DNA of 13,195 nucleotides, taken from Pseudonocardiales bacterium (GTDB lineage: Bacteria > Actinomycetota > Actinomycetes > Mycobacteriales > Jatrophihabitantaceae). How positions within the stretch are numbered: the stretch's first letter is position 1; each line of letters begins with the position of its first letter. Under the pieces are notes generated by a model. That model searched no databases. It worked only from the letters and a program-made list of their open reading frames with translations, and was not told the origin of the DNA. The position numbers were made by a program, and so were the translations under genes. Location of the stretch: positions 1-13,195 of the forward strand of contig JAODNL010000578.1 of the NCBI GenBank assembly GCA_025465405.1, given 5' to 3'. This document shows positions 1 to 13,195 of the stretch, piece after piece.

Positions 1-1
1 C

Positions 2-232
2 GTCGAGGACCCCATCGAGATGCAGCGCCTCGCCGACGCGCTGCCCGTCGAGAGGGCGGCCAGCCGCTTCATCGTGTCCGACGACCCCGAGGAGCACGTC
101 GACTCGATCAAGCGCTACCTCGACCTCGGCTTCACGCATCTCGTCTTCCATGCGCCCGGCCCGGACCAGGAGCGATTCCTGCGCGCCTACGGCCAGGAGA
201 TCCTGCCGCGACTGCGCACCCTCACGACGTAG
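2..232 (+). CDS. LLM-class F420-dependent oxidoreductase (luciferase-like monooxygenase / F420-dependent glucose-6-phosphate dehydrogenase family), C-terminal fragment; the 5' end lies outside the window
   Basis: The translation ...SDDPEEHVDSIKRYLDLGFTHLVFHAPGPDQERFLRAYGQEILPRLRTLTT matches the conserved C-terminal block of Fgd/LLM F420 enzymes. The frame is open back to position 2 and stops at TAG 230-232. Codon usage is typical of the genome. Confidence 0.65.
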   Translation, partial: VEDPIEMQRLADALPVERAASRFIVSDDPEEHVDSIKRYLDLGFTHLVFHAPGPDQERFLRAYGQEILPRLRTLTT

Positions 233-287
233 CGCTCGCCACGTGCCGACATGGCCACGGTGCCGGCTCCGAATCCGTCTGACGGGC

Positions 288-1076
288 TCAGGCCTGCTGT
301 GGCCCGCGTTGCCGGGTTCGCCGACGTCCTGCGAAGAGTCTCGCGGACAGCGTTACTGCTACTGCGGCGAGGCTGGCTGCGCGCCTCGTCCAGTCGGGTG
401 GAGCGCTGTCCCAACAGGCCATGAACAGGTAGCCCATTCCGATGAAGGCACTTCCCCATGCTACGGCGTGCGCACCGTTGACGAGGGCGAACATCCGGTA
501 GGAGACAGCGGAACCCGCTCGCGGGTCACCCGTCATCGCGTGAAGTGATGTCCATACCCGGCGACGCAGGGAAGTCCGCGGTTGCCATTCAGACCGCAGC
601 TTCGCCAGCCGTGCGCCGAAGCGGCGGCGAAGCAGGTATCCCGCGTTGTCGGAGGCGATGATCCAGCAGATGCCTCCGAGCATGGGCAGCCACAGACTGA
701 GGTGCTGCTGGAAGCCCAGGATGCCGCACAGGGCGCTGCCGCTGCGTCTGACGCCGGGTGGCGCGATGCGGGACGTCGTTCGCTTCGCCCCGGTCGTCAT
801 CGGCGTGGTGATCTGAGGGCTGAGCTTCGCGGGTGGGCAGTGCCGGCTGCTGTTCACGCAGCGGCGCACCTCGGGCGTAGCGTGGCGCTGGGCCGAGGGG
901 ACGACCGGCTCGTCGGCGTCGAGCAGGCCGCGCATCCCGGAGGCCAGCCAGAGACTGACGACCTCATCCCGACACGCCTCGCAGATCGTCAGGTGTGCGC
1001 GGACCGCGTGACTACCGCGTGGTCCCAGGGCATTCAGGACGAACGCGCCCACCCAGATCTGCATGTGGCACGTCAT
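288..1076 (-). CDS. Membrane-anchored anti-sigma factor with ZAS (zf-HC2) zinc-finger domain
   Basis: Within the 318-aa minus ORF, VRAHLTICEACRDEVVSL is an H-x3-C-x2-C motif, with Cys/His (MTCH) about 24 residues upstream. This is the zf-HC2/ZAS signature. Three hydrophobic segments follow: LCGILGFQQHLSLWLPMLGGICWIIA, MFALVNGAHAVAWGSAFIGMGYLF and AASLAAVAVTLSARLFA. Around 601-660, per-position GC is 85% at the third position of this frame and 55% at the second, which favours the minus strand over the antisense ORF 582..1346. The start is set at ATG 1076 (residue 57 of the ORF), which keeps the MTCH ligands and avoids a 104-nt overlap with the upstream gene. Codon bias weakens toward the 3' end, so the exact end and integrity are uncertain. 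Confidence 0.5.
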   Translation of the reverse strand: MTCHMQIWVGAFVLNALGPRGSHAVRAHLTICEACRDEVVSLWLASGMRGLLDADEPVVPSAQRHATPEVRRCVNSSRHCPPAKLSPQITTPMTTGAKRTTSRIAPPGVRRSGSALCGILGFQQHLSLWLPMLGGICWIIASDNAGYLLRRRFGARLAKLRSEWQPRTSLRRRVWTSLHAMTGDPRAGSAVSYRMFALVNGAHAVAWGSAFIGMGYLFMACWDSAPPDWTRRAASLAAVAVTLSARLFAGRRRTRQRGPQQA

Positions 1077-1140
1077 GCGCTCGTCTGCCTTCGGCACTGG
1101 GTGGCCATGTCTGTATTCACGGATCGCGGTCGGCAAACGC

Positions 1141-1614
1141 TCAATATTGGGACGGCGACGCGCCGACCGTCGGCAGGGTGGGGAGGGTGTTGTCGATTTC
1201 GTACCGCGCGGCCGGGCGCCGCGGTTGGATACGCCACGCGGCAAGTAGCACGATCAGGGATTCGGTGGAGATCGCGGCGACGCCGAGTGAGCAGTTCCAG
1301 TTTCCGACGTCGAGGGAATCTGTCGGCAGTCCGGTGGTGCGGCTGAGTACGTAGGCGAGAAGGGCGCCGCCGGCGATGGCGCTGGTCAGGGCCCAGACGA
1401 GCCGTCCGGGCAAAGTCAGCAGCATCGCGGCGGCGAGCACGGCCGCCACGACGAGCACAAAGTATCCGGAACCGATCACCGGGGTGGCTTGCAGGGTGCT
1501 CGGCAGATCAACGATATGGATGACCGCCACTGCCGTCAGGGCGATCGCGGCGGCGCCTCGAGTGAGGTGCTCGGACGGGATCCGCTCGAGGTGTTCGGGT
1601 TGCAGCGTGGGCAT
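1141..1614 (-). CDS. Small integral membrane protein (about 4 TM helices), function unknown, co-operonic with the ECF sigma factor
   Basis: 157-aa ORF with four hydrophobic helices (AAAIALTAVAVIHIV; VIGSGYFVLVVAAVLAAAMLLTL; LVWALTSAIAGGALLAYVL; SLGVAAISTESLIVLLAAW). A strong RBS AGGAGAG sits 5 nt before ATG 1614. Third-position GC is about 90% in this frame (1381-1440). It starts 34 nt after the sigma stop. Confidence 0.6.
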   Translation of the reverse strand: MPTLQPEHLERIPSEHLTRGAAAIALTAVAVIHIVDLPSTLQATPVIGSGYFVLVVAAVLAAAMLLTLPGRLVWALTSAIAGGALLAYVLSRTTGLPTDSLDVGNWNCSLGVAAISTESLIVLLAAWRIQPRRPAARYEIDNTLPTLPTVGASPSQY

Positions 1615-1648
1615 GATCTCTCCTGTCGGGCAAGGGAATGGCTACGGC

Positions 1649-2161
1649 TCAGGTCAGGCGGCGCGAGTCCAGTTGCCGCCGGAGTTGGCAGAGCGCGTAG
1701 TGCAGACGCGAGCGTGCGGTTCCGGCCGGCACACCGAGCCGAGCCGCGGTGACATGCATCGGGATGCCGAGGAAGAAGGTCTCGACCAGGATCTGCTGGT
1801 GCGGCGGGGAGAGCTGTCGCATGGCGTCGAGGAGAATGGTCCGGTCGACCAACTGGTCGAGCCCGCCGTCGACGAACGCTTCGACGGTAGGTTCCGCGTC
1901 GCTCAGCATCGGCCGGGCCTGCGCCGCGCGAGTGGCATCGATGAGCAGCCGCCGGGTCACGCGGAGCAGCCAGGCCCGCACCGGGCGCTCGTCTTCGAGC
2001 AGCCCGGGCAGGTGGCGCCAAGCCCGCAGGAACGTCTCCTGGACGATGTCCTCCGCGCGCCCACGGTCCTGCGTGAAGCCCTCGGCGTAGGCCAGCAGTG
2101 CCTGGCCGTGTTCGGCGTACAGCACCTTGATCGCCTCATCGGCGTTCGGTTTGCTCAGCAT
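1649..2161 (-). CDS. ECF (sigma-70 family, group 4) RNA polymerase sigma factor
   Basis: Region 2 (VLYAEHGQALLAYAEGFTQDRGRAEDIVQETFLRAWRHL) and region 4 HTH (LSPPHQQILVETFFLGIPMHVTAARLGVPAGTARSRLHYALCQLRR) are both present. The start is placed at ATG 2161 (M13 of the listed ORF). The 12 upstream codons (2162-2197) are an AT-rich perfect palindrome with GC3 about 30%, which is not coding-like. Confidence 0.85.
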   Translation of the reverse strand: MLSKPNADEAIKVLYAEHGQALLAYAEGFTQDRGRAEDIVQETFLRAWRHLPGLLEDERPVRAWLLRVTRRLLIDATRAAQARPMLSDAEPTVEAFVDGGLDQLVDRTILLDAMRQLSPPHQQILVETFFLGIPMHVTAARLGVPAGTARSRLHYALCQLRRQLDSRRLT

Positions 2162-2197
2162 GTCTACTAACACGCTTAGTAGACGCGATACGTTCAA
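2159..2197 (-). promoter_or_regulatory. 39-bp promoter/operator cassette, copy A (minus-strand sense TTGAACGTATCGCGTCTACTAAGCGTGTTAGTAGACATG), ending in the sigma-factor ATG
   Basis: 34/39 identical to copy B at 3701-3739 on the plus strand. It contains a TTGAAC -35-like hexamer and the dyad. Its terminal ATG is the sigma start codon, which suggests a leaderless transcript. Confidence 0.5.
2162..2184. promoter_or_regulatory. Perfect inverted repeat GTCTACTAA-cacgc-TTAGTAGAC (9+5+9), a putative repressor operator abutting the sigma-factor start codon. It is part of the 39-bp cassette 2159-2197.
   Basis: Read directly from the sequence. It is an AT-rich island in about 70% GC DNA. The same TCTACTA-N7-TAGTAG dyad recurs at 3715-3735. 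The TAC..A/T..GTA dyad style resembles BlaI/MecI/CopY-family operators. Confidence 0.6.
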
Positions 2198-2227
2198 CCA
2201 TCCGTCACCGGCGGGGTTCGGCGTCTG

Positions 2228-3235
2228 TCAACGCGGTGCGATAGCGGAAACCTGCTGGAAGGCACTGATCGGCCGCCGCACGGGTGGCTGTGTCGCGGCG
2301 ACCGCCGCCGGAGTCAGGGCGACGAGCAGCGGCATCAGCCCGAGCACAGCGACCGCGGCGCGGACCGTCCTGCGGCGCCGTGGACTCAGCGAGGCAGGCG
2401 GCAGCAGCAGCCGGCGGATCCTCGTCACGGTGTCACCGTCGGCCGCGGCGAGGGTGGCTGACGACGCGCTGACCGGGGCCAGGCCGGCTCGGGCCGTGGC
2501 CACGGCCACGATCGCCGTGGCGAGCGTCTCGGGATCGTGACTGCATGCGGCCAGGTCGTCAGCGTGCAATTCCAGCAGGCGGCGGACCTGACGCGGCAGG
2601 TCGCGCATGAACGGAAGTTCCGGCAGGGCGCGGCCGGCCAGCGCGGCGCCGGCGAGCAGGCGATGGTGCCGGGCGCCGAGGTGTGCCCGCTCGTGCGCGA
2701 GCACAGCAGCCAGCTGCGGGCCGGTGAGCAGTTCGATCGTGCCGCTGGTCAGGATCACGGTGTTCGTGCGGCCGGCCAGGCAATAGGCAGCTGGCTGCGG
2801 CTGGTCGAGGATCACCGCTTCGAGTTCGGCGGCTCGCCGACCGCACAGAATGAGCAGGGTGCGCTGACGGCGGCGCTCTGTCAGCCGGCTCCGGACGACC
2901 TGAAGTGATGCCCAGCCGACGCGGGCCGCTATCGCGCCCGACAGCGTCAGGCCGGCACCGGCGACCGCGGCGCCGCCCGGCGTCACGTAGGCGGCGCGGA
3001 GCCGCAGGATGCACGCGCCGAGCAGGTGGCTGAGCCCGCTCGAGAGTGCGGTGCCGGGCAGGGCGACGGTGAGCCCGGCGAGGAACAGTGCGGCCAGCAC
3101 CGACCATGCAGCGGCCAGCAGCAGCGTCGCGCCGAGCCGCGGTGCGCGCGCCAGCCAGCCGTCGTAGCGATGCGCGAGCCGGCCGAGCGCAAGGAGAATC
3201 GCCGCGTAGACCAGCAGCGCGGCGCCGACCGTCAC
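2228..3235 (-). CDS. blaR: M56-family zinc metallopeptidase, BlaR1/MecR1-like signal transducer lacking the C-terminal penicillin-binding sensor domain
   Basis: HEXXH motif (AVLAHERAHLGARHH) lies between hydrophobic helices, and there are N-terminal TM segments (VGAALLVYAAILLALG; LGATLLLAAAWSVLAALFLAGLTVAL). GTG start 3235-3233 overlaps the blaI TGA stop (GTGA), a classic coupling arrangement. The 335-aa length is too short for a PBP-like sensor domain. Confidence 0.8.
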   Translation of the reverse strand: MTVGAALLVYAAILLALGRLAHRYDGWLARAPRLGATLLLAAAWSVLAALFLAGLTVALPGTALSSGLSHLLGACILRLRAAYVTPGGAAVAGAGLTLSGAIAARVGWASLQVVRSRLTERRRQRTLLILCGRRAAELEAVILDQPQPAAYCLAGRTNTVILTSGTIELLTGPQLAAVLAHERAHLGARHHRLLAGAALAGRALPELPFMRDLPRQVRRLLELHADDLAACSHDPETLATAIVAVATARAGLAPVSASSATLAAADGDTVTRIRRLLLPPASLSPRRRRTVRAAVAVLGLMPLLVALTPAAVAATQPPVRRPISAFQQVSAIAPR

Positions 3236-3630
3236 CGCTTGGCCCGGCCACGCCGTTGGGTGAGCGCCACGTCCAGCGCGTGGGCCAGTGCCTTCGCGTC
3301 GTCGGCGTCGATGTGCTCGACGAACCGCGCCAGCGCACCAGCGCGATCCGTGCTGCTCTCCAGCGCGTCGTTCATCAACTGGGCGGCGTAGCTCTCCCGG
3401 GTGAGCGCGGCCGAGTAACGCCAGGCGCGGCCATCGCGTTTCCGGGTCAGCCAGCCCTTGCGGTGCAGGTTGTCCATCACGGTCATCACGGTGGTGTAGG
3501 CCAGCGGCCGCTCCGGCTGAAGCTCGAAGACCACGTCGCGCACCAGCCGAGATGCGTCCGCGTCCCACAACAGCTCCATGATCGCCGCCTCGAGCTCGCC
3601 GAACGGACGGAGCCGGCGCGATTCAGTCAC
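3232..3630 (-). CDS. blaI: BlaI/MecI/CopY-family winged-helix transcriptional repressor (penicillinase-repressor family)
   Basis: 132 aa with ELEAAIMELLW ... LAYTTVMTVMDNLHRKGWLTRKRDGRAWRYSA, the hallmark HTH/wing of BlaI-family repressors. GTG start at 3630 is preceded by GAGGGG 8 nt upstream. The gene is followed by an overlapping M56 peptidase gene. Confidence 0.85.
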   Translation of the reverse strand: MTESRRLRPFGELEAAIMELLWDADASRLVRDVVFELQPERPLAYTTVMTVMDNLHRKGWLTRKRDGRAWRYSAALTRESYAAQLMNDALESSTDRAGALARFVEHIDADDAKALAHALDVALTQRRGRAKR

Positions 3631-3700
3631 GACTGGTTCCCCTCACGCCAGATAGCACGCATTGTGGCACCCCGCCGTTCAATCGCGGGACGACCGGAGC

Positions 3701-3739
3701 TTGAACGTAGCGCATCTACTAGCCGTGTTAGTAGTCATG
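3701..3739 (+). promoter_or_regulatory. 39-bp promoter/operator cassette, copy B (TTGAACGTAGCGCATCTACTAGCCGTGTTAGTAGTCATG), in the divergent blaI / haloperoxidase-like intergenic region
   Basis: 34/39 identical to copy A. It contains the dyad CTACTAg-ccgtg-tTAGTAG (3715-3735). It ends in ATG 3737-3739, which is in frame with the downstream gene. It lies 49 nt upstream of the RBS-linked ATG 3788 and 71 nt upstream of the blaI GTG on the other strand. Confidence 0.5.
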
Positions 3740-3774
3740 TCGCGTGACCGACCAGAGTCGCGTGACCGAGCAGA
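3739..3774 (+). repeat. Tandem 18-bp direct repeat, GTCGCGTGACCGACCAGA / GTCGCGTGACCGAGCAGA (17/18 identical), between cassette B and the RBS of the haloperoxidase-like gene
   Basis: Read directly. Each unit contains an imperfect dyad, GTCGC/GTGAC. It is followed by CAGATC-GGA-GATCTG (3771-3785), an inverted repeat that includes the GGAG RBS. Confidence 0.55.
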
Positions 3775-3787
3775 TCGGAGATCTGTC

Positions 3788-5113
3788 ATGACTTCCAAGC
3801 CCCGCCGCGCCGCGAGCTCGCCACGGCCCAGGCTCGCAGCCGCGCTGGCAGCCATCGCCGTGATCGGTGCCGCATCCCTGACCGGTCCGGCGAGCGCGGC
3901 CGAACCCGCCGCGGCCAATGCCGTCGGGCCAGCCGCACGCAACGTGGTCGTCGAATGGAACCGGACCCTGCTGTCACTCGTGCAGACTCCCGGTGCGCAA
4001 CCGCCCACCGTCCAGCCCACCCGCGACTTCGCGATCATGAGCGCGGCCGTCTACGACGCCGTCGACGCGATCGACCCCGACCGCCCGCAGTACCTGCTTC
4101 ACCTCGCGGCGAGCCACCGCGCATCGCAGGACGCCGCGGCCGCGCGGGCGGCGCACGACGTGCTGACCGCGCTGTTCCCGAACTTCACGGCCCCGCTCGA
4201 TCAGCAGCTGACCGCCGACCTCGCCACCATCTCGTCGGGGCCGGCCCGAACCGCGGGCGTTCAGGTCGGGGCGCGGGCCGCGGCCGAGCTGCTGCAGACG
4301 CGGGCGACGGACGGCTCCGCCTCGCCGCCGCCGCCCTACCTGAGCACCGGCGCCGCGGGCGACTACCGGCCGACCGCTCCCGGATTCGCGGCGCCGGTGT
4401 TCACCCACTGGGGCGCGGTGACGCCGTTCGTGCTGCGCCGCGGCGACCAGTTCCGCCCCGCGCCGCCCGCCGTGCTGAGCAGCCCGGCCTACGCCGCCGC
4501 GATCAACGAGGTGAAGAGCCTCGGCCGGGACACGAGCGCCACCCGGACCGCCGAGCAGACCACCATCGGCAGGTTCTGGGCCGCCCCGGTGCAGAACTAC
4601 TGGAACGCCATCGCCGGGCAGGTGGTGCTCGCCCACCATGACGACACCGACTCCTCAGCGCGCACCTTCGCCCTGCTCGACCTCGGTCTGGCCGACGCCA
4701 CCATCGCCCTCTACGACGCCAAGTACACCTACCGGCTGTGGCGGCCGATCACCGCGATCCGCCTCGCCGGCACCGACGGCAACCCGCTGACCGCCGCCGA
4801 TCCGTCCTGGACGCCGCTGGCCACGACGCCGGCTGACCCGTCCTATCCCGGCGCGCACAGCACCCTGAGCGCGGCAGCGGCAACGGTGCTCACCGCCCGG
4901 TACGGCGACGATGTCTCTTTCACCGTCAGCTCGCCGACCCTGCCCGGCGTCACCCGCTCCTTCGGAAGCTTCCGCGCCGCCGCGACCGAAGCCGGGCTGA
5001 GCCGGATCTACGCCGGCATCCACACCCGCCTCGACCACGCGGCCGGCCTCACCCTCGGCGACCAGGCCGGCCAATACGCCCTCGATCACGCGCTCAGCCA
5101 TGACCAGCACTGA
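3788..5113 (+). CDS. Secreted PAP2-superfamily protein, vanadium-dependent haloperoxidase-like / acid phosphatase-like
   Basis: RBS GGAG sits 8 nt before ATG 3788. The N-terminus is a Sec-type signal peptide (MTSKPRRAASSPRPRLAAALAAIAVIGAASLTGPASA/AEP). The PAP2/VHPO tripartite motifs are present: K-x6-RP (KYTYRLWRP), a PSGH-like box (PSYPGAHS) and SR-x5-H-x3-D (SRIYAGIHTRLD). FWAAP...NYWNAIA is typical of the haloperoxidase-like branch. Confidence 0.75.
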   Translation: MTSKPRRAASSPRPRLAAALAAIAVIGAASLTGPASAAEPAAANAVGPAARNVVVEWNRTLLSLVQTPGAQPPTVQPTRDFAIMSAAVYDAVDAIDPDRPQYLLHLAASHRASQDAAAARAAHDVLTALFPNFTAPLDQQLTADLATISSGPARTAGVQVGARAAAELLQTRATDGSASPPPPYLSTGAAGDYRPTAPGFAAPVFTHWGAVTPFVLRRGDQFRPAPPAVLSSPAYAAAINEVKSLGRDTSATRTAEQTTIGRFWAAPVQNYWNAIAGQVVLAHHDDTDSSARTFALLDLGLADATIALYDAKYTYRLWRPITAIRLAGTDGNPLTAADPSWTPLATTPADPSYPGAHSTLSAAAATVLTARYGDDVSFTVSSPTLPGVTRSFGSFRAAATEAGLSRIYAGIHTRLDHAAGLTLGDQAGQYALDHALSHDQH

Positions 5114-5963
5114 CCGCCGGGCCGGCGCCACCTGGGCCGACATCGACGCTGAGGACGGTCAGCCTCACGGCGTGCTTCTGATCCACGGCCAGCCCGGCTC
5201 GTCGCTGATCTGGAACCGGGTCCGTCCCCTGCTACGCGATCGCGGTTTGCGGGTCATGGCGGTTGACCGGCCCGGCTACGGCCACACCGGCGGCGACGCC
5301 CTGAACCAACTCGACAACGCCGCGGCGCTTGCCCGGCTCCTCGACGAGCGGCACACCCCACCGGCGGTGATCGTCGGGCACAGCCTCGGCGCGGGCATCG
5401 CGTTGGCCCTGGCAGCCGCCGCACCGCACCACGTGCGGGCGCTGGTGCTCGTCGCTCCGGCCGCAGGGCCGGCCGCGATCACCGCGACCGACCGCGCACT
5501 TGCCGCGCGCGTCGTCGGCCCGTCGTTGAGCTGGCTCGGATTCCGGACGGCCGGCCTGCTGCTGCACATTCCGGTGCTGCGCCGCCGAATCCTCATCGGA
5601 CGCGCGGGCCTGAGCGCAACCGACGCCGAAGAAGTCGTTCGCCGCATGACCCCCGGCGACGTCTGGCGCAGCTTCACCATCGAGCAGCGGCACCTGGTGC
5701 GCGATGCCCATGAGCTTCAGCAACGATTGGACGCGATCCGCTGCCCGGTCGTGATCGTCGCAGGCACCCGCGACCGGATCGTCCGCCCCCGGGTCGCGGC
5801 CGCGGTGGCCGGACAACTGCCCGAGGCATGCCTCATCACGACCGACGCCGGTCATCTCATCCCGGTCGACGACCCCGACGCGGTCGTAGACGCTGTGCTC
5901 CGCGCACTTCGCCTGGACTACCGGAAATCCCTGTCACCTCGTTCGGGCCAGCGAAATGCCTGA
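5100..5963 (+). CDS. Alpha/beta-fold hydrolase
   Basis: HG oxyanion motif (LLIHGQPGS), nucleophile elbow GHSLG, and a late D/H region (ITTDAGHLIPVDDP). ATG 5100 overlaps the upstream stop by 14 nt. Confidence 0.8.
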   Translation: MTSTDRRAGATWADIDAEDGQPHGVLLIHGQPGSSLIWNRVRPLLRDRGLRVMAVDRPGYGHTGGDALNQLDNAAALARLLDERHTPPAVIVGHSLGAGIALALAAAAPHHVRALVLVAPAAGPAAITATDRALAARVVGPSLSWLGFRTAGLLLHIPVLRRRILIGRAGLSATDAEEVVRRMTPGDVWRSFTIEQRHLVRDAHELQQRLDAIRCPVVIVAGTRDRIVRPRVAAAVAGQLPEACLITTDAGHLIPVDDPDAVVDAVLRALRLDYRKSLSPRSGQRNA

Positions 5964-7488
5964 ACCTCCCGCGGCATCCGTCACCGCGCCCGCCGACCCC
6001 CCGACGCCGCACCGCGCGGAGCGAGCCGTGTTACCCACCGGTGCGCTGCGACGCACGAGTCGCCTCGTCGCGCTCCCGTTACGCCATGCCGCGCGAGCGG
6101 CTACCGCGGCCAGCCGGCTGTCGGGCACGACCACCGAGCAGGTCGCCGCCCGCAGCGCCGAGCAGGTGTTCGCCACGCTCGGCGAACTCAAGGGAGGTGC
6201 CGCGAAGCTCGGGCAGGCACTGTCGGTGTTCGAAGCTGGGCTGCCCGAGGAGGTCGCGAAGCCCTACCGGTCAGCACTGAGCCGGCTCACCGATGCCACG
6301 CCGGCCATGCCGGCCGCGGTCGCCCGTCGCGTGGTAGCGACCGATCTGTCACTCGCCTACGGGACGGAGTGGCGTAACCGGCTCGTGGACTTCGGCGATG
6401 CGCCCGCGGCCGCGGCATCGATCGGCCAGGTACATCGCGGGCGATGGCGCGATGATCGCGGCAACATCGTCGATGTGGCGGTGAAGGTGCAGTACCCGGG
6501 AGTGGCCAAGGCGCTGCGCTCTGACCTGCGCACCGCGCACATGCTGGGTCGGGTGATGGCTCATGTAACTGGACTCGACATTGCCGGGCTGACCGACGAG
6601 CTGGCAGCGCGGATGATCGATGAACTGGACTACGTTCGCGAGGGTCGCGCGCAGAGTCAGGTCGCGGCCGCGTTCTCCCCGCGCGTCCCGCGAGCCCTGT
6701 GTGTGGCCCGCGCTGAGGGGGTGCAGGAGCCGCCGGGCCGCACCAGCGTCGTCGTCCCGCGGGTGTACGCCGCGATGCCGCACGTGTTGGTGACCACCTG
6801 GCTGGATGGGACGCCGCTGACGGCACTGCTGGACGGCGGCACCGATTCCCTTCCCACGGACTGGCAGGAGCTCGCCCGCGACGACGCGGCAAATCTGGCG
6901 GCTCGGCTGATCGGCCACGCGGCGTATGCCCCAGCGGCCTGCTCCGGCTGGATGCACGCCGACCCGCACCCGGGCAATTTCCTGCTGCTGCCCGGTCGAC
7001 GCCTCGGCCTACTGGACTTCGGATCGGTCGCAGCGATGCCCGGTGGACCGCCGGAACCGCTGGGACAGCTGGCGGTCGCGGTACTGGCCGATGACGGCCC
7101 GAGCGCCCTTCGGTGGGCCCGACAGGCCGGTGCGCTGGCCCAGGACGCGGCGGTCGAACCCGACCTGCTCATCGAACTACTTCATCCGATAGTGGCCCCA
7201 ACGGCGCAAGACAGCTTCACCTACTCACCGTCCTGGTTACGCGCCCTTTTGACCCACCTCACCCAATCGCGTTTCGCCGCTGTCAGACGGGAATTGACGA
7301 CGCCGCTCGAGTACGCACTCATCTGGCGCGGGGTGCTGTCGGCCGGGGGCCTGTACGCCCAGCTCGGCGCGACCGTACCCAGCCGCGCCTTCGAAATGGC
7401 GTATTCGCCTGGATTCCGCCACGCCGCCCTGTCCGCCGATCGGCACGAAGAGCCGCGGCGGCACGACTACAAGGAGTTGAGGTCATGA
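5956..7488 (+). CDS. ABC1/UbiB (AarF) family atypical protein kinase
   Basis: The ABC1 N-terminal block is present: LGELKGGAAKLGQALS, followed by the ATP-binding stretch ASIGQVHRGRW...VAVKVQYPG. The catalytic region reads HADPHPGNFLL...LGLLDFG. ATG 5956 overlaps the hydrolase stop by 8 nt. Confidence 0.85.
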   Translation: MPEPPAASVTAPADPPTPHRAERAVLPTGALRRTSRLVALPLRHAARAATAASRLSGTTTEQVAARSAEQVFATLGELKGGAAKLGQALSVFEAGLPEEVAKPYRSALSRLTDATPAMPAAVARRVVATDLSLAYGTEWRNRLVDFGDAPAAAASIGQVHRGRWRDDRGNIVDVAVKVQYPGVAKALRSDLRTAHMLGRVMAHVTGLDIAGLTDELAARMIDELDYVREGRAQSQVAAAFSPRVPRALCVARAEGVQEPPGRTSVVVPRVYAAMPHVLVTTWLDGTPLTALLDGGTDSLPTDWQELARDDAANLAARLIGHAAYAPAACSGWMHADPHPGNFLLLPGRRLGLLDFGSVAAMPGGPPEPLGQLAVAVLADDGPSALRWARQAGALAQDAAVEPDLLIELLHPIVAPTAQDSFTYSPSWLRALLTHLTQSRFAAVRRELTTPLEYALIWRGVLSAGGLYAQLGATVPSRAFEMAYSPGFRHAALSADRHEEPRRHDYKELRS

Positions 7489-8024
7489 TGATCAAATCCA
7501 AGAGGCTGCCGCTGTATGTCGCCGGGGGCGCTGGCCTCAGCGCGCTGGCAGCGGTCTTCGGGCTGACGCTGACCCATTCCGGGCCGAGTGCCGCCGGGGT
7601 GACCGCGTCGCCCCCCTCGACCGTCGTACAGACCCGGGCCACCGCGCTCGGGCAGATCCTGGTCGACGCACAAGGCCGCAGCCTGTACCTGTTCGCCAAA
7701 GACACCGGGCCCGTCTCGACCTGCCAGGGCAGTTGCACCTCAGCCTGGCCGCCGGTGCCGGTGTCCGGTGCGCCGCACGCGGCCGGTACCGCGTCCGCGT
7801 CGGCGCTCGGGGTAATCGGCCGTTCGGGCAGCAGCCGGCAACTGAGCTACGCCGGGCATCCGCTGTACTACTTCGCCGGAGACCACAAGGCAGGACAGAC
7901 GAAGGGGCAGGCGCTGGACCAATTCGGCGCCAAATGGTTCGTCCTGAACCCAGCAGGAGCTGCGGTCGTCAACGCGCAGAGCAATGCCGGCAACAGCGGC
8001 GGTGGCGGCGGGTACGGCTATTGA
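7485..8024 (+). CDS. Secreted protein with tandem Yx(F/Y)xxD repeats (COG4315 / 'secreted repeat of unknown function' family)
   Basis: The true start is ATG 7485 (MMIKSKRLPLYVAGGAGLSALAAVFG signal peptide), with RBS AAGGAG 8 nt upstream and an ATGA overlap with the kinase stop. Two repeats are present, SLYLFAKD and PLYYFAGD, plus the family C..GSC..AWPP motif. The tail is Gly-rich. The upstream 124 codons of the listed ORF 7113.. overlap the kinase in another frame and are not coding. Confidence 0.7.
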   Translation: MMIKSKRLPLYVAGGAGLSALAAVFGLTLTHSGPSAAGVTASPPSTVVQTRATALGQILVDAQGRSLYLFAKDTGPVSTCQGSCTSAWPPVPVSGAPHAAGTASASALGVIGRSGSSRQLSYAGHPLYYFAGDHKAGQTKGQALDQFGAKWFVLNPAGAAVVNAQSNAGNSGGGGGYGY

Positions 8025-8052
8025 CCAGCCGTCCCGACCACAGGGACAGGTT

Positions 8053-8154
8053 ATGGCCTGGGCGCCGCTCGGCACCGCAGTGATCGTGTTTGCCACCTTG
8101 GGGGCCGCGCACGCTCGTGGTCTTTCCCTGGGCTCACGCCTCGACCTGAAATAA
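8053..8154 (+). CDS. Possible 33-aa single-TM micro-protein (MAWAPLGTAVIVFATLGAAHARGLSLGSRLDLK)
   Basis: ATG preceded by GGGACAGG. It encodes a hydrophobic helix and lies immediately upstream, in a different frame, of a flotillin gene that lacks its membrane hairpin. Too short to judge by codon statistics. Confidence 0.2.
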   Translation: MAWAPLGTAVIVFATLGAAHARGLSLGSRLDLK

Positions 8155-8182
8155 TCATCACTCGCTAAGGAGTAGTCCGGCC

Positions 8183-9526
8183 ATGTTGGGTTACCACGTT
8201 CCAGCGCCCGATGAGGCGATGCTGATCTCCGGAGGCAAGGCCAGGGGCTCCGACGCGCCGTTCCGCGTGGTGACTGGTCGAGGCGCCTATGCCGCGCCGA
8301 TGTTTCGCAAGGTGCGGTTCATCACCCTATCGATGTCGGAGTCCGAGGTGGAAGAGAACTGTGTGACCAAGCAGGGCATCGCGCTGAAGGTCAAGGCCGT
8401 CATCGCGTTCAAGGTAGGTAATGACACCGAGTCCATCGTCAACGCATCGCAGCGCTTCCTCTCCGACCAGTCCCAGATGTCGGTGCTCACGGGCCGGATC
8501 TTCTCCGGTCACCTTCGCTCGATCATCGGCTCGATGACCGTCGAGGAGATCGTCACCGAACGGCAGAAGCTGGCCTCCGAGGTGCTCGACGGATCCAAGG
8601 AGGAGATGGCCAAGATCGGTCTCACGGTCGATGCGCTGCAGATCCAGTCCATCGACGATATGGGGCTGGGGTACATCGCCGCGATGGCAGCGCCGCACAA
8701 CGCGGCCATCCAGCGAGCAGCGAAGGTCGCGGCGTCGCAGGCCGATCAGGCGGCCGCGGAGGCTCAGCAGGCATCCCTGCGCGCCCAGGCCGAGTACGTC
8801 CGCCAGACCGAGATGGTCCAAGCCCAGTACGCCGCCGATGTGGAGGGAGCGAAGTCCGCCGCGGCCGCCACCGCTGCGGCGGCGGCCCAGGAGTCGGCGC
8901 GCAACCAAGCCAACTACGAGGCCCAGACCGCAGTCACCCGGTCGAAGGCGACCCAGGTAGCTGCCGAGGCGCAGCAGGAGTCCGACCGCAACCAGGCCGA
9001 CTTTGCCCGCCAAACCGCGGTCGCGAAGGCCACGTTCGCAGCCGAAACCCAAGCGGCGCAAGCCAAAGCCGACCAGTCCGGACCGCTGGCCCACGCCGTT
9101 GCGCAGCAGCAGGTGATCGATGCCCAGACGGCCCTGGCCCAGCGGCAGGCCGAACTGGCCCGCCAGACGCTTGTATCCACCGTCATCCGCCCCGCAGAGG
9201 CCGACGCCGAAAGGGTGAAGATCCTCGCCGCAGCCGACGCGGAGCGGACCAAGATCCTGGCCGAGGCGGCTCAATCCCACAACCGCGTCGCACTCGACCA
9301 ACAGATCATCGCCCAACTCCCGCTCATCGTGGAGAAGGCCGCGCAGGGTCTCGCCGGCGCCCACTTGACGGTGCTCAACGGATCAGAAGGAGTGACGGAG
9401 ATCGTCTCGTCACTGGTCGGTCAGGGGGTAGCCATCCTGGACTCGATCAAGCAAGGCGTAGCCGGCTCCAGCGAAGCCACAGACCGCCGATCCACCTCGC
9501 CGACAATAAAAGGCATCACTAACTAG
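8183..9526 (+). CDS. Flotillin-like SPFH/band-7 domain protein (FloT/YuaG-like) with Ala/Gln-rich coiled-coil region
   Basis: RBS AAGGAG sits 11 nt upstream of the ATG. PDEAMLISGG...FSGHLRSIIGSMTVEEIVTERQKLASEV aligns with the FloT SPFH core. A long AQ/EA-rich coiled coil with three degenerate repeats follows. There is no N-terminal hydrophobic hairpin. Confidence 0.85.
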   Translation: MLGYHVPAPDEAMLISGGKARGSDAPFRVVTGRGAYAAPMFRKVRFITLSMSESEVEENCVTKQGIALKVKAVIAFKVGNDTESIVNASQRFLSDQSQMSVLTGRIFSGHLRSIIGSMTVEEIVTERQKLASEVLDGSKEEMAKIGLTVDALQIQSIDDMGLGYIAAMAAPHNAAIQRAAKVAASQADQAAAEAQQASLRAQAEYVRQTEMVQAQYAADVEGAKSAAAATAAAAAQESARNQANYEAQTAVTRSKATQVAAEAQQESDRNQADFARQTAVAKATFAAETQAAQAKADQSGPLAHAVAQQQVIDAQTALAQRQAELARQTLVSTVIRPAEADAERVKILAAADAERTKILAEAAQSHNRVALDQQIIAQLPLIVEKAAQGLAGAHLTVLNGSEGVTEIVSSLVGQGVAILDSIKQGVAGSSEATDRRSTSPTIKGITN

Positions 9527-9730
9527 GCACCCATAACACCTGCGTCCTGCGTGGTTACCTCATTGCCGTACCCACCGCCGAGGCAGGAAATGCGGCTCTA
9601 CTGACTAACTCGACCTGGCCGGTGCTCTCGGTCAGCACCGACTTGCCCCGGGTGCCGTTGCGGATGTCGCATCGAGATAGTCGCGCAACGATAGATCCGC
9701 CCGTGGCATCACGATGACCCAGTTGTCCTC

Positions 9731-9922
9731 GTGCTCTCCGGAGTCATTCACGGGCACGCCATTGCGTACTCCGTCGAGACCGACGAGCAGCAATTCTCGG
9801 TCAGCGCCTGGCGTCTTCGGTACGAACTTCGGTACCGCCTGATCCTCAGCGACGGCGACTACGAAGACCTGCCCGAACCCGCCCGCACCGATCCGCTTAC
9901 CAACGACCCCCCGAGCACCTAA
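9731..9922 (+). CDS. Hypothetical small protein (63 aa, GTG start), acidic C-terminus
   Basis: GC3 is about 81% in this frame versus about 68% for the overlapping minus-strand ORF 9632..9934. No recognisable motif. Confidence 0.3.
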   Translation: MLSGVIHGHAIAYSVETDEQQFSVSAWRLRYELRYRLILSDGDYEDLPEPARTDPLTNDPPST

Positions 9923-9932
9923 ATCCCCGGCC

Positions 9933-10145
9933 ATGCTCGCAGTGTGTAGCCGGGCCCGACCCGTCGATGGGTGCGGCTCGATGCGCCGGGCGCTCGTCCT
10001 GCGCGATGGAATCAGATCGAAGGATCGGTGCGGCGTGATTGAGGACGAGTCCCAGCAGCTCGTGGACGGGCACGACGTGATCGGCGGCTGGTGCCGGTGT
10101 CCGGCTCGCGGTGACGCGAGGGACATCGAGGTCAGGCCGCTGTAG
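9933..10145 (+). CDS. Hypothetical small Cys-containing protein (70 aa)
   Basis: GC3 is about 83%. It overlaps the 3' end of the convergent monooxygenase gene by 14 nt. No recognisable motif. Confidence 0.25.
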   Translation: MLAVCSRARPVDGCGSMRRALVLRDGIRSKDRCGVIEDESQQLVDGHDVIGGWCRCPARGDARDIEVRPL

Positions 10146-11256
10146 CGGCGACGGTCGACTGGTCGGCCGGCTGGGTGATCCGGTGGCGGTCCAGGTGCGT
10201 GATGATGTAGGCCGCGTCGCGTGCGACTCCCCACAGTGACGCCGATGCCAGCGCGAACTGGAATTCCAGTCCGATGAAGTACAGCCCGGTCACCCGGGTG
10301 GACACGCCGCGCGAGTGCACGGGGGTGCCGTGCTCATCGAAGGCCGTGTCGAGGTCAATCCACGGGAAGTCGTGCCGGTGGCCGGTGCACCAGATGACGT
10401 TGGTGACGTCGAGCACCTGACCGTTCTCGAGCTGCGGCAGCCCGTCCTGGACGCCGACGACGCGACCGACCCGCTTGACGCCGGCGTCGGCCAGCCACTT
10501 CGGCTTGACGCGGATCACCGGCGTTGCCTTACCGCGCATCCTCGGCGCTGCGCGGCGTCCCATCGGCGTGCGCAGGCACAGCACGTTGCGCTGCACGAAC
10601 CGCACGACACGAACCACGACTATCCGCGCAAACAACTTGTCTATATCGGGCGGGATGTGCGCCACCTTGGGCCCGGCCAGCCAGGTCGGATGCGACGGCA
10701 CGACATCCAGGCTAATGTCCGCGCCGGAGTTGCCGCCGCCGACGAGCAACACGCCTCCGGGCTGCAACTGAGCCGGGTTGCGGTAGCCCGACGAGTGCAG
10801 CTGCACGATGTGCTCGTCGAGGTCATCGGCGAAGGACGGCACCTTCGGCGCACCGTAGGAACCGGTCGCGACGATGACGTTGGACGCGGTGATCACGCCG
10901 TTCGACGTCGTGATGACGAACCGGTCGCCGGACTTCGTCAGCGCGGTCACGCGGACGTCGTTGCGCACCGGCAGGTCGTGGTGGGCGGCGTAGGCCTCGA
11001 GATAGTCGGCCATCTCGTCCTTGGTCGGCGCCAGGCTGCGTTGCGCCGTGAAGCGCAGGCCGGGCAGCTCGCAGTCACGGCGCGGCGTGAACAGCCGCAG
11101 CGAATCCCAGCGGCTGCGCCAGGCCTCACCTACCCGCGGATAGGCGTCCAGCACGACGAATTCGCGGCCGCGCTTCTTCAGCTCGTAGGCGGCGATGAGG
11201 CCGGCCTGGCCGCCCCCGATGACCACCGTCTCAATGTGTTCCGTGCTGCTGTTCAT
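10132..11256 (-). CDS. NAD(P)/FAD-dependent oxidoreductase, class B flavin-containing monooxygenase-like (CzcO-like)
   Basis: N-terminal FAD-binding GxGxxG (TVVIGGGQAGLIAAYEL) and a second dinucleotide-binding motif (VLLVGGGNSGADI). RBS GGGGGAG sits 6 nt before the ATG. Confidence 0.85.
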   Translation of the reverse strand: MNSSTEHIETVVIGGGQAGLIAAYELKKRGREFVVLDAYPRVGEAWRSRWDSLRLFTPRRDCELPGLRFTAQRSLAPTKDEMADYLEAYAAHHDLPVRNDVRVTALTKSGDRFVITTSNGVITASNVIVATGSYGAPKVPSFADDLDEHIVQLHSSGYRNPAQLQPGGVLLVGGGNSGADISLDVVPSHPTWLAGPKVAHIPPDIDKLFARIVVVRVVRFVQRNVLCLRTPMGRRAAPRMRGKATPVIRVKPKWLADAGVKRVGRVVGVQDGLPQLENGQVLDVTNVIWCTGHRHDFPWIDLDTAFDEHGTPVHSRGVSTRVTGLYFIGLEFQFALASASLWGVARDAAYIITHLDRHRITQPADQSTVAATAA

Positions 11257-11341
11257 GTCCGCTCCCCCAGTCGTATTCCTTGAGGAGGGACGCTAAGAGC
11301 AGCACCGCAGGCCCGGCATCCGAAGAAATACCCATTCGGGG

Positions 11342-12967
11342 TCACACCAGGTTGTGCTGGAACGCATACGCCGTCGCCGCCGACCGAGAGCCGACGTCGA
11401 GCTTGGCGAAGATGTTGCTCACATGCCGGTGCACGGTCTTTTCGCTCACGAACAGCTCGTCGGCGATCGCCCGGTTGCTCTTGCCGGCGGCGATCAGCCG
11501 CAACACCTGCACCTCGCGCAGCGACAGGCCACCCGCGATCGCTGCGGAAGACCGCTTGGACAGCTTCTGCACGAGCGCGAGGTCGGGCGCCGCGCCGAGC
11601 TCCTGGAAGACCCAGCGCGCCGCATCGAACTCCATCTCGGCGGTGTCCTCGTCGCCGAGCACGCGGCACGCCTCGCCGATGAGGACGCGCACCCGCGCGC
11701 CGTGATACGGCGCCTCGAGCTCCTGCCACTGCGTCCACGCCGACCGCAGGCAGCCCAGTGCCGTCGGCGCGTCGCCCTCGGCCAGCGTCACCGAGCCGTC
11801 GGCGTACTTGGCCGTCGCGCGCAACAACGGCACGTCGATCTGGTTGGCGATCGCGGCGAGTTCGTCAGCCGCCGCACGGGCTGCCGCCACCTGGCCGACG
11901 GCGAGTTCGATCTCGACCTGCGCGCCAAGCAGGCGTGCCCTCGCAACGACATCGGTCGTCTCGTCGAGCGCGCGGCGGATCGCGGCGGTCGCGGATTCGG
12001 TGTGGCCCTGCACGAGTCGCAGCAGCCCGAGGCCAGGCTGGGTCTCGTGACCATGCAGGCTTGCTTGCTTGTAGGCCGCCTCGGCGTCGGTGAAATCGCC
12101 GCGCAGCCGATGCAACTCGCCGAGCCGGTAGTACGCGTTGCCGAACGAGTGGCCGGCGGCATCGGCGAGCCAGTCGCGGGCGCGTTCGGCTTGGTCGTAC
12201 GCCTCGGGCCAGGCGCCGTGGAACGTGAGGATCTCGGCGCGGTGCACCAGGCAGTTGCCACGGTATGGGACCAGGTCGGGTTGCGCGTCGCACCAGCGTG
12301 TCAGCGCCGCCGTCCACTCCTGCGCGCGGCGGACCTCGAGGATCTGCTGGCACGACTCGATCGCCGCGCAGAACGCGAGACCCGCGACAAGCGGCGACAC
12401 GGTGCCGGCGTTGACCGCGACCATCACCTCGTCGAGTGACTGCAGCCCATCGCTTGCGCGGCCGAGCTGAATGAGGCACTGGCCGCGGCCCATCCGGCTC
12501 AGCGTCATGCCGTTGGCATCGCCCAGCCGGTCGGCATTGCGCCGGGCTTCTTCGAACATCTCCAACGCGGTGTCGTACTCGCCGGCGAACATGGTCCCGG
12601 CGGCCGTCTGCCCGAGGACGAACCACCGCGCCGGGCAGTCGAGGTTGTGCTCGTCGCAGAGCGCCTGAACGCGCGCCAACCATCCACCACCCAGCGCGAA
12701 TTCCCCGTTGGTGACGAGCGCGAACGAGCACCACGCCGCGGCCATCGCCGCGTTCTCGACTTCGCCCACCTCGAGATAAGTGGCGTGCGCGCGACTCCAC
12801 GCCTCGGTCGAGTCCTGGGCCTTGCCGATGCAATGCGCCGCGACGGCCAGCTGCTCGAGTTGCTGCGGGTCCAGCGGCTGATCGGCATCGGCCGCAACAA
12901 GGTGCGCGTACGCCTCGCCCCACGCACGCCGCGCGTAGGCATCGCCTGCCAGCTCCAATATCCCCAC
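11342..12967 (-). CDS. LuxR-family transcriptional regulator with N-terminal TPR-like helical repeat domain (no AAA/ATPase module)
   Basis: C-terminal LuxR HTH: LSLREVQVLRLIAAGKSNRAIADELFVSEKTVHRHVSNIFAKLDV. Upstream of it are about 450 aa of Ala/Leu-rich helical repeats. GTG start at 12967. It sits 85 nt upstream of the monooxygenase gene on the same strand. Confidence 0.8.
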   Translation of the reverse strand: MGILELAGDAYARRAWGEAYAHLVAADADQPLDPQQLEQLAVAAHCIGKAQDSTEAWSRAHATYLEVGEVENAAMAAAWCSFALVTNGEFALGGGWLARVQALCDEHNLDCPARWFVLGQTAAGTMFAGEYDTALEMFEEARRNADRLGDANGMTLSRMGRGQCLIQLGRASDGLQSLDEVMVAVNAGTVSPLVAGLAFCAAIESCQQILEVRRAQEWTAALTRWCDAQPDLVPYRGNCLVHRAEILTFHGAWPEAYDQAERARDWLADAAGHSFGNAYYRLGELHRLRGDFTDAEAAYKQASLHGHETQPGLGLLRLVQGHTESATAAIRRALDETTDVVARARLLGAQVEIELAVGQVAAARAAADELAAIANQIDVPLLRATAKYADGSVTLAEGDAPTALGCLRSAWTQWQELEAPYHGARVRVLIGEACRVLGDEDTAEMEFDAARWVFQELGAAPDLALVQKLSKRSSAAIAGGLSLREVQVLRLIAAGKSNRAIADELFVSEKTVHRHVSNIFAKLDVGSRSAATAYAFQHNLV

Positions 12968-13146
12968 GGGAGCTATTCTCGCCCCCTGCCACGACCTAGT
13001 CGGCGTCGCACGACGCGCGCCGGTGCCTCCCTTGCATGAAGAATCCGCGCCGACGCGGTTCGTGGCGGCCTCACCCTAAGCACCCGCGTGGCGCCTCGTC
13101 CGCAGCGGGCGTCACCACAGAATAGATAGGGCCAGAGACGGGAAGC

Positions 13147-13176
13147 CCCGCTCCTCAGCTCCTGCCGAGGAGCGGG
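13147..13176. other. Strong GC hairpin (10-bp stem CCCGCTCCTC / GAGGAGCGGG, 10-nt loop). Either a factor-independent terminator of a gene beyond the window or a leader structure upstream of the LuxR gene.
   Basis: Read directly. There is no U-tract, which is common in high-GC actinobacteria. Confidence 0.3.
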
Positions 13177-13195
13177 ACCCCAACGCCTGCGAGCC

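Follow-up and report, generated by a model that had tools for sequence, protein, structure and literature searches.

Association of a BlaI/BlaR-type repressor-protease pair with a SigL-like ECF sigma factor and a composite promoter element in Actinobacteria

The subject of this report is a gene cluster of a Pseudonocardiales bacterium (Jatrophihabitantaceae; assembly GCA_025465405.1, contig JAODNL010000578.1, positions 1 to 13,195) in which the genes for a BlaI-type repressor and a BlaR-like membrane protease are joined to that for a sigma factor of the extracytoplasmic function (ECF) type. The whole stretch analyzed, 13,195 nucleotides with a guanine plus cytosine fraction of ~0.65-0.74, is referred to as the window. 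An earlier note on this DNA, prepared from the sequence alone, had described two signaling modules fused in one cluster of five minus-strand genes; all five genes were recovered and the domain assignments hold in comparisons with Pfam and the PDB. The five genes and three associated promoter elements are as follows.

3232..3630, minus strand: blaI, BlaI/MecI/CopY-family winged-helix repressor, 132 amino acids
2228..3235, minus strand: blaR-like membrane gluzincin protease, 335 amino acids, without sensor domain
1649..2161, minus strand: ECF sigma factor, SigL-like, 170 amino acids, ATG start
1141..1614, minus strand: small four-helix membrane protein (4-TM protein), 157 amino acids, uncharacterized family
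288..1076, minus strand: ZAS protein, 262 amino acids, with an RslA-like ZAS domain (residues 1-60) and an orphan C-terminal domain
2164..2196, minus strand: P_sigma, composite element (-35, dyad and -10) upstream of the sigma gene
3652..3681, minus strand: P_blaI, sigma-type promoter without dyad arms, upstream of blaI
3702..3734, plus strand: second composite element, directed away from blaI and toward the ATG at 3737

Products of the five clustered genes

With its N-terminal winged-helix DNA-binding domain, the repressor matches Pfam Penicillinase_R (PF03965) at an E-value of 2.5e-26 and a score of 92.7 bits, the cut-off being 22.6, and its best match among solved structures is BlaI of Mycobacterium tuberculosis (2g9w, E 8.6e-19). 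A CopY subtype was considered and rejected because the protein is devoid of cysteine; TIGR02698 is hit with 34.9 bits vs. a cut-off of 122. Among 59 orthologues of 54-86% identity, the stretch AYTTVMTV of the recognition helix and the wing sequence GRAWRY are invariant or nearly so, and the helix sequence AYTTVM is common to the window protein and M. tuberculosis BlaI. Phe103 aligns with the P1' residue Phe102 of what we take to be the Staphylococcus aureus BlaI sequence and is invariant in the same 59 orthologues, the P1 residue being Arg. The protease cleavage site of such repressors is carried by the C-terminal dimerization helix. In S. aureus, BlaR1 cleaves BlaI directly, at the site Asn101/Phe102 (PMC9834060), and cleavage of the window BlaI by the protease encoded next to it would be expected by analogy.

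The gene for this protease starts with a GTG (3235-3233) that overlaps the blaI stop codon TGA (3234-3232) in a GTGA arrangement, as had been pointed out earlier; the gene pair is kept in the loci examined and its translational coupling is conserved. The protease carries the motifs H181ERAH and E222LHAD, which lie 41 residues apart and are both invariant in 35 homologues. Exactly the same spacing separates H201EXXH and E242XXXD in S. aureus BlaR1 (PMC9834060). With regard to family assignment, the window protein itself matches Pfam Peptidase_M48 only (E 5e-11) and does not reach Peptidase_M56 (PF05569), while M48 is matched by 35 of the 35 homologues and M56, in addition, by 14 of them (best E 1.1e-6). 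Relatives are named 'M56 family metallopeptidase' by NCBI, the closest named ones stemming from Jatrophihabitans. When the AlphaFold model (predicted local distance difference test score, pLDDT, 85) was submitted to Foldseek, Ste24p ranked first and S. aureus BlaR1 (8exq and 8exs) second and third, all as weak matches with E-values of ~0.08-0.09; for BlaR1, the E-value was 0.09 and the TM-score 0.35. Sequence searches of the PDB with the single protease and with a 35-sequence profile retrieved HtpX only (E 0.0016) and not BlaR1. For the window protein, designated earlier as an M56 protease, 'BlaR-like M48/M56 protease' is at most the appropriate assignment. The earlier claim that a sensor domain resembling penicillin-binding proteins is missing proved correct: no extracellular penicillin-binding domain is present in the 335-residue chain, which ends about 20 residues past its last helix. 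A BlaR without sensor domain has already been described for M. tuberculosis, its signal being stated as unresolved (PMC9834060).

As in ECF (group 4) sigma factors, which have ~170-200 amino acids, the only sigma regions present are Sigma70_r2 (E 1.3e-15) and Sigma70_r4 (E 1.2e-8). Among PDB entries, SigL of M. tuberculosis is the closest (6dv9_F, E 1.4e-29), the next match following at 1.3e-10. The NCBIfam model PRK09645 is hit with 168.2 bits, below its cut-off of 202; the protein is a relative, not an equivalog. The model is presumably SigL-type and bears no label in the library beyond 'sigma-70 family RNA polymerase sigma factor'.

The 4-TM protein matches no Pfam or NCBIfam family, and its 43 homologues are all named hypothetical. 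Four helices are seen in its AlphaFold model (pLDDT 84), and His33, an SRTTGLP motif and Glu118 are invariant in the family. Its gene comes next after the sigma gene in 11 loci labelled Jatrophihabitans, Kribbella or Frankiales. In 24 loci of a Streptosporangiaceae type a different small membrane protein, termed type B, is encoded at this place and overlaps the sigma stop codon by 1-8 nt. It features four segments and conserved DLTRC and GF..Y.IPD sequences and belongs to no family (loci L014, L018, L020, L116, L117, L119 and ~20 more; locus numbers with the prefix L are ours). Homology between the 4-TM and type-B proteins was rejected on the basis of an hhalign probability of 0.2. In genomes with type-B proteins the 4-TM gene is preceded by a composite promoter of its own, and the 4-TM protein therefore looks like a regulon member, while the type-B protein is a possible unrecognized partner of sigma. 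No anti-sigma domain of a known kind would fit the cytoplasmic part or N-terminal tail of either protein, given its shortness or variability.

The last gene of the cluster had been interpreted as that for a membrane anti-sigma factor of the ZAS type. In agreement with this, the protein exhibits the motif H28-x3-C32-x2-C35 (HxxxCxxC), passes the zf-HC2 cut-off narrowly (24.2 bits vs. 22.2) and has the anti-sigma factor of SigL, RslA, as its sole PDB match (3hug_B, E 0.003). For membrane localization, hydropathy lends at best moderate support, with three stretches of moderate hydrophobicity and a Kyte-Doolittle maximum of 1.39. What did not stand is its adjacency to and conservation with the sigma gene. 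The gene is set apart from sigma by the 4-TM gene in the window and lies three genes further away in locus L001. The protein has only five homologues among 5.8 billion proteins and, among the loci fetched, is present in the window, its near-identical relative L066 and L001 only, which identifies it as a lineage-specific addition and not as part of a conserved operon. The ZAS protein is outside the conserved system, but a genuine partnership with the SigL-like sigma factor of the window, in the manner of RslA, is plausible. Most loci are without a recognizable anti-sigma domain. The C-terminal 150 residues (window 288-749) constitute a moderately hydrophobic orphan domain that also occurs as a stand-alone protein of 153 residues adjoining an Nramp gene (L002 1930-2391). 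A DedA identity of this domain, prompted by the motif SDNAGYLLRRRFG, was dropped as there was no Pfam match even at E 1.

Given that a membrane-embedded protease is encoded beside sigma and small membrane proteins, and that a partner protein is plausible for a protease without sensor domain, it is conceivable that the protease cleaves the membrane partner of sigma (the ZAS, 4-TM or type-B protein) instead of or besides BlaI, in a manner resembling site-1/site-2 proteases. We consider this improbable, because the translational coupling of blaI and the protease gene is conserved everywhere, the cleavage-site Phe is kept in BlaI, S. aureus BlaR1 cuts BlaI directly, and the candidate partners differ by lineage and are non-homologous. 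An action of the protease on the anti-sigma factor, as raised in the earlier note, is pure speculation.

A composite element in front of the sigma gene

Protease stop and sigma ATG are separated by 66 nt, where ~67 nt and a BlaI-type dyad belonging to the sigma gene had been claimed. The dyad is real and perfect. It is not a free-standing operator, however, as it sits within a putative promoter of the SigL-type, sigma-dependent kind. The sequence CTACTA-N7-TAGTAG occurs at 2164-2182 and again at 3716-3734, compared to 0.01 occurrences expected by chance in the window. At P_sigma, a -35 box TGAAC (2196-2192) is followed by the dyad arms CTACTA (2182-2177) and TAGTAG (2169-2164) and by the -10 sequence CGTGTTAG (2174-2167), such that the layout is TGAAC-N17-CGTGTTAG and 2 nt separate the dyad from the ATG of the sigma gene. 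Common to both window sites and to related loci is a succession in which TGAAC is followed after nine bases by (T)CTACTA, after two more by CGTG(T/A)TAGTAG and after a further two by ATG. In the second element, TGAAC is located at 3702-3706 and the dyad at 3716-3734, 2 nt before the ATG at 3737, and this copy would drive the PAP2-hydrolase-ABC1-Lipoprotein_15 side of the locus. P_blaI consists of TGAAC (3681-3677), a 17-nt spacer and CGTGCTAT (3659-3652) and exhibits neither dyad arm. Altogether, TGAAC-N16-18-CGTG is matched three times in the window, always with N17, vs. 0.31 expected matches.

Judged by sequence, TGAAC-N17-CGTG is an ECF promoter layout, and the inverted repeat covers its spacer and -10 region. 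The -35 boxes of SigL-dependent promoters read TGAAC(C). The -10 element of SigL has been defined experimentally as C-G-T-G-N-C/A-A-G, the M. tuberculosis P-sigL promoter reading CGTGTCAG (PMC6372665). CGTGTTAG matches this consensus except at position -9 and resembles P-sigL, from which we infer that the sigma factor of the cluster uses these promoters. The location of the ATG only 5 nt after the -10 suggests that sigma is probably translated from a leaderless mRNA.

Other candidate signals in the window were discarded. A third dyad match with two mismatches (7177-7195, plus strand) is situated inside the ABC1 gene, ~290 nt before the Lipoprotein_15 start, with neither TGAAC nor CGTG around it; chance is the probable explanation. 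A divergent housekeeping -10 TACGTT for blaI, overlapping the -35 of the sigma promoter, was weakly supported by base counts and was superseded by the nearer sigma-type promoter. A generic sigma-70 promoter scan found none, and a terminator scan detected one terminator-like site, inside the protease gene.

Occurrence and arrangement in other genomes

Independently of the DNA motif, a first set of loci was collected with a ZAS protein homologue (L001) and protease homologues of 51-86% identity as entry points. In all of these protein-found loci a sigma ortholog is encoded beside blaI-blaR, and the composite element lies directly before the sigma gene and before other genes. The arrangement is same-strand in L001, as in the window, and divergent in L003 (Jatrophihabitans sp. 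DSM 45814), L005, L007, L116, L117 and L119, while in L006 the sigma gene resides downstream of the protease gene on the opposite strand. L006 also features tandem ECF sigma genes beside blaI-blaR (11026-12164), the products of which are 60% and 27% identical to the window sigma factor; a composite element is found between the two, upstream of the closer ortholog.

The pattern TGAAC-N9-CTACTA-NN-CGTG-N-TAGTAG (21 fixed bases) was then sought on both strands in one genome per species (596 Gb) and was present in 106 stretches, compared to ~0.3 expected on a rough estimate. All but one are labelled as Actinomycetota or as a lineage within this phylum, comprising Kribbella, Pseudonocardia and Blastococcus as well as metagenome-assembled genomes labelled Frankiales, Frankiaceae, Jatrophihabitantaceae and Streptosporangiaceae. 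The remaining stretch, L048 (CAWGFH010000030.1), stems from a metagenome-assembled genome labelled Alphaproteobacteria; here, the element is followed by an open reading frame with the type-B membrane protein motif, and the contig is probably mis-binned. Cultured carriers are Kribbella karoonensis JCM 14304, Kribbella sp. GL6, Pseudonocardia kujensis, P. terrae, P. aurantiaca and Jatrophihabitans sp. DSM 45814. A genome scan with the single protease sequence yielded no relatives.

Among the proteins encoded by the first gene behind 139 distinct perfect elements are sigma (49 cases), Lipoprotein_15 (25), ABC1 (16), a YceI-like protein (~9), the 4-TM protein (5) and PAP2 (3). An ATG follows exactly 2 nt past the dyad at 46 of the 49 sigma sites. 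For 42 of these 49, blaI is located at a distance of up to 4 kb, and in 35 of the 42 the two genes are divergent with 62-262 nt between them; most of the other seven sites lie at the edge of their locus. The usual layout is therefore divergent and the same-strand order of the window, which had been taken to define the cluster, is a rearranged variant. On the other hand, the coupling of blaI-blaR to an ECF sigma gene proposed in the earlier note, now checked across actinobacterial loci, is backed by strongly conserved synteny and by the DNA element. That the window merely juxtaposes two unrelated modules by chance might be concluded from the rarity of its gene order and from the rearrangement by which it differs from L001, but this is refuted by the comparative data and hardly deserves further consideration: the association recurs in Jatrophihabitans, Kribbella, Pseudonocardia, Frankiales/Frankiaceae and Streptosporangiaceae-labelled loci, in several gene orders and always together with the composite element.

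A scan that left the arms free revealed 225 distinct TGAAC-N17-CGTG(T/A)TAG sites in all fetched loci (965 kb). The left arm is perfect at 50 of 50 sigma sites vs. imperfect at 33 of 33 blaI sites. Of 62 distinct regions upstream of blaI, 57 have TGAAC-N16-18-CGT at a distance of 50-110 nt from the start codon. In the window, L001, L005, L009 and L095, P_blaI keeps TGAAC-N17-CGTG and has neither arm; the arms are entirely lacking in Jatrophihabitans-type loci and degenerate in those of the Streptosporangiaceae type. Sigma-type promoters with and without the palindrome thus occur in the same genomes, with the best palindrome at sigma, and this looks like an operator laid over a promoter. Strong repression of sigma combined with weak or no self-repression of blaI would look like this, without the pattern being proof of it.

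The obvious candidate for a protein binding the dyad is BlaI. It is the sole regulator conserved in the neighborhoods of the examined loci, is usually encoded across a common intergenic region, and belongs to a palindrome-binding family, the studied members of which bind their operators as dimers (PMC1935004, PMC7253601). In addition, the near-invariance of its recognition helix and wing parallels the invariance of the dyad half-sites, which likewise points to BlaI as the putative ligand.

On the plus strand of the window, the second composite element is followed by four genes.

3737..5113, plus strand: PAP2/vanadium-haloperoxidase-like secreted protein (PAP2, E 2.9e-9), first gene behind the second element
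5100..5963, plus strand: alpha/beta hydrolase (Abhydrolase_6, E 1.4e-26), overlapping the PAP2 gene
5956..7488, plus strand: ABC1/UbiB-type atypical kinase (PF03109, E 3e-38)
7485..8024, plus strand: Lipoprotein_15 (secreted repeat) protein (PF03640, E 1.4e-26)

Orthologues of the PAP2 protein contain VCPO_2nd and PAP2 domains, and the synteny of the hydrolase gene is kept in L001, L003 and L007. In L001 and L007 the PAP2 gene is part of the sigma operon itself. The PAP2-hydrolase pair of L001 (7798-9946) is inserted between the 4-TM and ZAS genes, while its window counterpart (3702-5963) is inverted on the other side of blaI with its own copy of the composite element upstream; genes have been shifted between two promoter copies by rearrangement. 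Further downstream, a Band_7/flotillin-like protein with a long, Ala/Gln-rich repetitive middle part is encoded at 8183-9526 (plus strand; AT skew 0.27 at 8501-9500). Its identity to the protein encoded in L001 amounts to 92%, compared to 63% for sigma and 50% for the ZAS protein, and its gene may be the last of the operon behind the second element. In other loci, an FtsH paralogue (AAA and Peptidase_M41) is encoded near blaI-blaR (L116 5504-7446, L119 7990-9930, L117 11378-12948), in L116 directly behind a perfect composite element, and genes for YceI-like and MPAB_Lcp_cat proteins are further apparent regulon members in L116, L117 and L119. The remaining window genes encode a C-terminal fragment, luciferase-like oxidoreductase by eye only (20-232, plus strand), a flavin monooxygenase-like oxidoreductase (10132-11256, minus strand) and a large TPR-LuxR regulator (11342-12967, minus strand); they are not conserved in related loci and have no evident tie to the system.

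A proposed regulatory circuit and its relation to known systems

Starting from what is seen in the data, i.e., the gene identities, the composite element, its conservation and position and the genomic associations, we propose as the rather probable explanation a conserved actinobacterial circuit in which a SigL-like sigma factor is gated mainly at the transcriptional level by BlaI and a sensor-less BlaR-type protease, with feedback on blaI-blaR. Sigma would read promoters of the form TGAAC-N17-CGTG(T/A)TAG. At its own and most effector promoters, the 6-7 bp inverted repeat (T)CTACTA-N7-TAGTAG(A) would overlie spacer and -10, and a BlaI dimer bound there would keep out RNA polymerase carrying sigma. 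A membrane or envelope cue would switch on the protease, BlaI would be cut near Arg102/Phe103, and the sigma promoter would open, allowing sigma to amplify its own synthesis from the leaderless mRNA. The regulon thereby switched on would comprise Lipoprotein_15, the ABC1/UbiB kinase, PAP2, the hydrolase and the 4-TM protein, and elsewhere also YceI-like proteins and the FtsH paralogue. As blaI-blaR would be transcribed by sigma from a promoter with no or a degenerate dyad, repression would eventually be restored. The earlier note had envisaged a linear two-tier cascade; in view of the sigma-type promoter at blaI in 57 of 62 regions, a feedback loop takes its place. In the lineage of the window, the sigma operon would have been relocated behind blaI-blaR, and an RslA-like zinc-binding anti-sigma protein would have been added as a second, post-translational layer. 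The interpretation of the earlier note is partly supported and has to be redrawn as a feedback loop around a composite promoter-operator, usually in a divergent layout and with a ZAS layer that was added locally.

Several points weigh against this proposal. The window protease has Pfam M48 as its only family match and is nearer to M48 than to M56, and structurally it matches BlaR1 weakly (E 0.09). The genome scan fixed TGAAC, both arms and CGTG, such that invariance of these positions within the scan set is circular; free of this bias are only the loci collected via protein similarity. Binding of BlaI to the dyad is a prediction from conservation and layout. If the only promoter of sigma is both sigma-dependent and repressed, the proposal does not account for the start of the loop. 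A basal level of sigma that primes the loop could come, in the window, from transcripts that begin at the dyad-less P_blaI and run on over the 66-nt gap; no terminator was found in this gap, the scan itself being weak evidence. Finally, the right arm TAGTAG overlaps the -10/discriminator and resembles the ...CAGTAAG of P-sigL, and many blaI promoters retain the left arm's inner CTA, so that part of what appears as a 'dyad' may be a contact for sigma.

Another arrangement has to be weighed as well, in which blaI-blaR is merely a member of the sigma regulon and BlaI has its targets elsewhere, the 'dyad' is an extended sigma recognition sequence or the site of an unlinked regulator, and sigma is controlled post-translationally via the small membrane or ZAS protein. 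The sigma-type promoter in 57 of the 62 distinct blaI upstream regions would fit it, as would the coincidence of the right arm with -10 and discriminator (M. tuberculosis P-sigL reads CGTGTCAGTAAG) and the inner CTA retained by many degenerate sites. Moreover, the gene for the small membrane protein overlaps the stop codon of sigma by 1-8 nt in 24 loci, as genes of sigma/anti-sigma pairs typically do, and the window encodes a ZAS protein resembling RslA. A perfectly symmetric 6-7 bp repeat in the promoter spacer, on the other hand, is no known requirement of an ECF sigma factor, and arm-less TGAAC-N17-CGTG promoters exist in the same genomes. Repressors and their targets are classically laid out as at 35 loci here, with a divergent repressor gene and a palindrome in the common intergenic region. 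Conserved regulators other than BlaI are missing from these neighborhoods, and the N-terminal tails of the small membrane proteins are too short or variable for any anti-sigma domain known. We therefore judge this arrangement to be unlikely, yet worth keeping in mind, and return to BlaI as the proposed gatekeeper of sigma.

A more far-reaching version of the gating by BlaI can be put forward tentatively, with a probability that we estimate at somewhat less than even. It would describe a widespread actinobacterial ECF family in which the anti-sigma factor is replaced by a BlaI/BlaR switch, every strongly read promoter carries a BlaI operator, the regulon fires only upon destruction of BlaI, and sigma resynthesizes BlaI/BlaR as a reset. 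ECF sigma factors are classified largely by the type of restraint acting on them, i.e., anti-sigma factors, extensions, kinases and two-component systems. If true, the circuit would add a mode of ECF regulation in which a repressor is removed by a dedicated membrane protease and the operator resides within the sigma factor's own promoter motif; the composite element would illustrate cleanly how two inputs meet at one natural promoter. Sensor-less BlaR would acquire a compact predicted regulon (Lipoprotein_15, ABC1/UbiB kinase, YceI-like proteins, PAP2, hydrolase, small membrane proteins and FtsH paralogue), and in Actinobacteria it would gain a role apart from beta-lactamase, in membrane or envelope homeostasis. 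The cultured carriers make the question directly testable.

All parts of the circuit are of known kinds. The earlier note knew of no described coupling of BlaI/BlaR to an ECF sigma operon, and indeed neither a conserved blaI-blaR/sigma locus, nor sigma-dependent blaI-blaR expression, nor an ECF sigma factor with a regulon-wide BlaI-type operator in its promoter motif was found in the accessible full-text literature; the absence of a match there is not proof of novelty. In its main text, the 2021 ECF reclassification makes no mention of a BlaI, BlaR, M56, M48 or peptidase context. A partial precedent exists, however, as sigC is reported to belong to the M. tuberculosis BlaI regulon (PMC8265638, which refers to the 2009 work of Sala). 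Neither a composite sigma promoter/operator nor sigma-dependent blaI-blaR is described for M. tuberculosis in the accessible literature.

When compared with the BlaI/BlaR1 (MecI/MecR1) systems of S. aureus and Bacillus licheniformis, the cluster shares a dimeric winged-helix repressor co-transcribed with a membrane gluzincin protease of the HEXXH and EXXXD type and a palindromic operator, here a candidate, in a divergent intergenic region. Derepression through a cut in the repressor at a conserved Phe has been shown in S. aureus (PMC9834060) and would be predicted here. Unlike in these systems, there is neither a penicillin-binding sensor domain nor a beta-lactamase or PBP2a target, blaI precedes blaR, the candidate operator lies inside ECF sigma promoters and not inside promoters of the housekeeping sigma factor, and the repressor-protease operon itself appears to be ECF-sigma-driven.

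M. tuberculosis BlaI (Rv1846c) is the closest solved relative of the window repressor, and BlaR (Rv1845c) likewise has no sensor domain. The regulon of M. tuberculosis BlaI is also reported to include an ECF sigma gene, sigC, whereas the sigma factor studied here is SigL-like and not SigC-like. Work by Sala and co-workers from 2009 is said to have identified sigC as one of several M. tuberculosis BlaI targets, in a region in common with blaC. A resemblance to SigL/RslA of M. tuberculosis is evident from the best structural-database matches of sigma (SigL) and ZAS domain (RslA), from the -10 sequences (CGTGTTAG vs. CGTGTCAG) and from an autoregulated sigma gene, a feature predicted here. In contrast to SigL/RslA, most loci are without an RslA-like protein, the 4-TM gene of the window lies between sigma and the ZAS gene, which encodes an additional orphan C-terminal domain, and the PRK09645 cut-off is not reached.

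With regard to ECF groups that are regulated by other means, transcription of ECF39 genes is directly regulated by a two-component system, and ECF32 is also controlled transcriptionally, without an anti-sigma factor (PMC7826278). As in these groups, sigma activity in the proposed circuit would mainly be set by transcription of the sigma gene, and an anti-sigma gene is not adjacent. The controller would differ from that of ECF39 in being a repressor destroyed by proteolysis instead of a two-component system, and the circuit is set apart from both ECF39 and ECF32 by a candidate operator that is repeated at the effector promoters.

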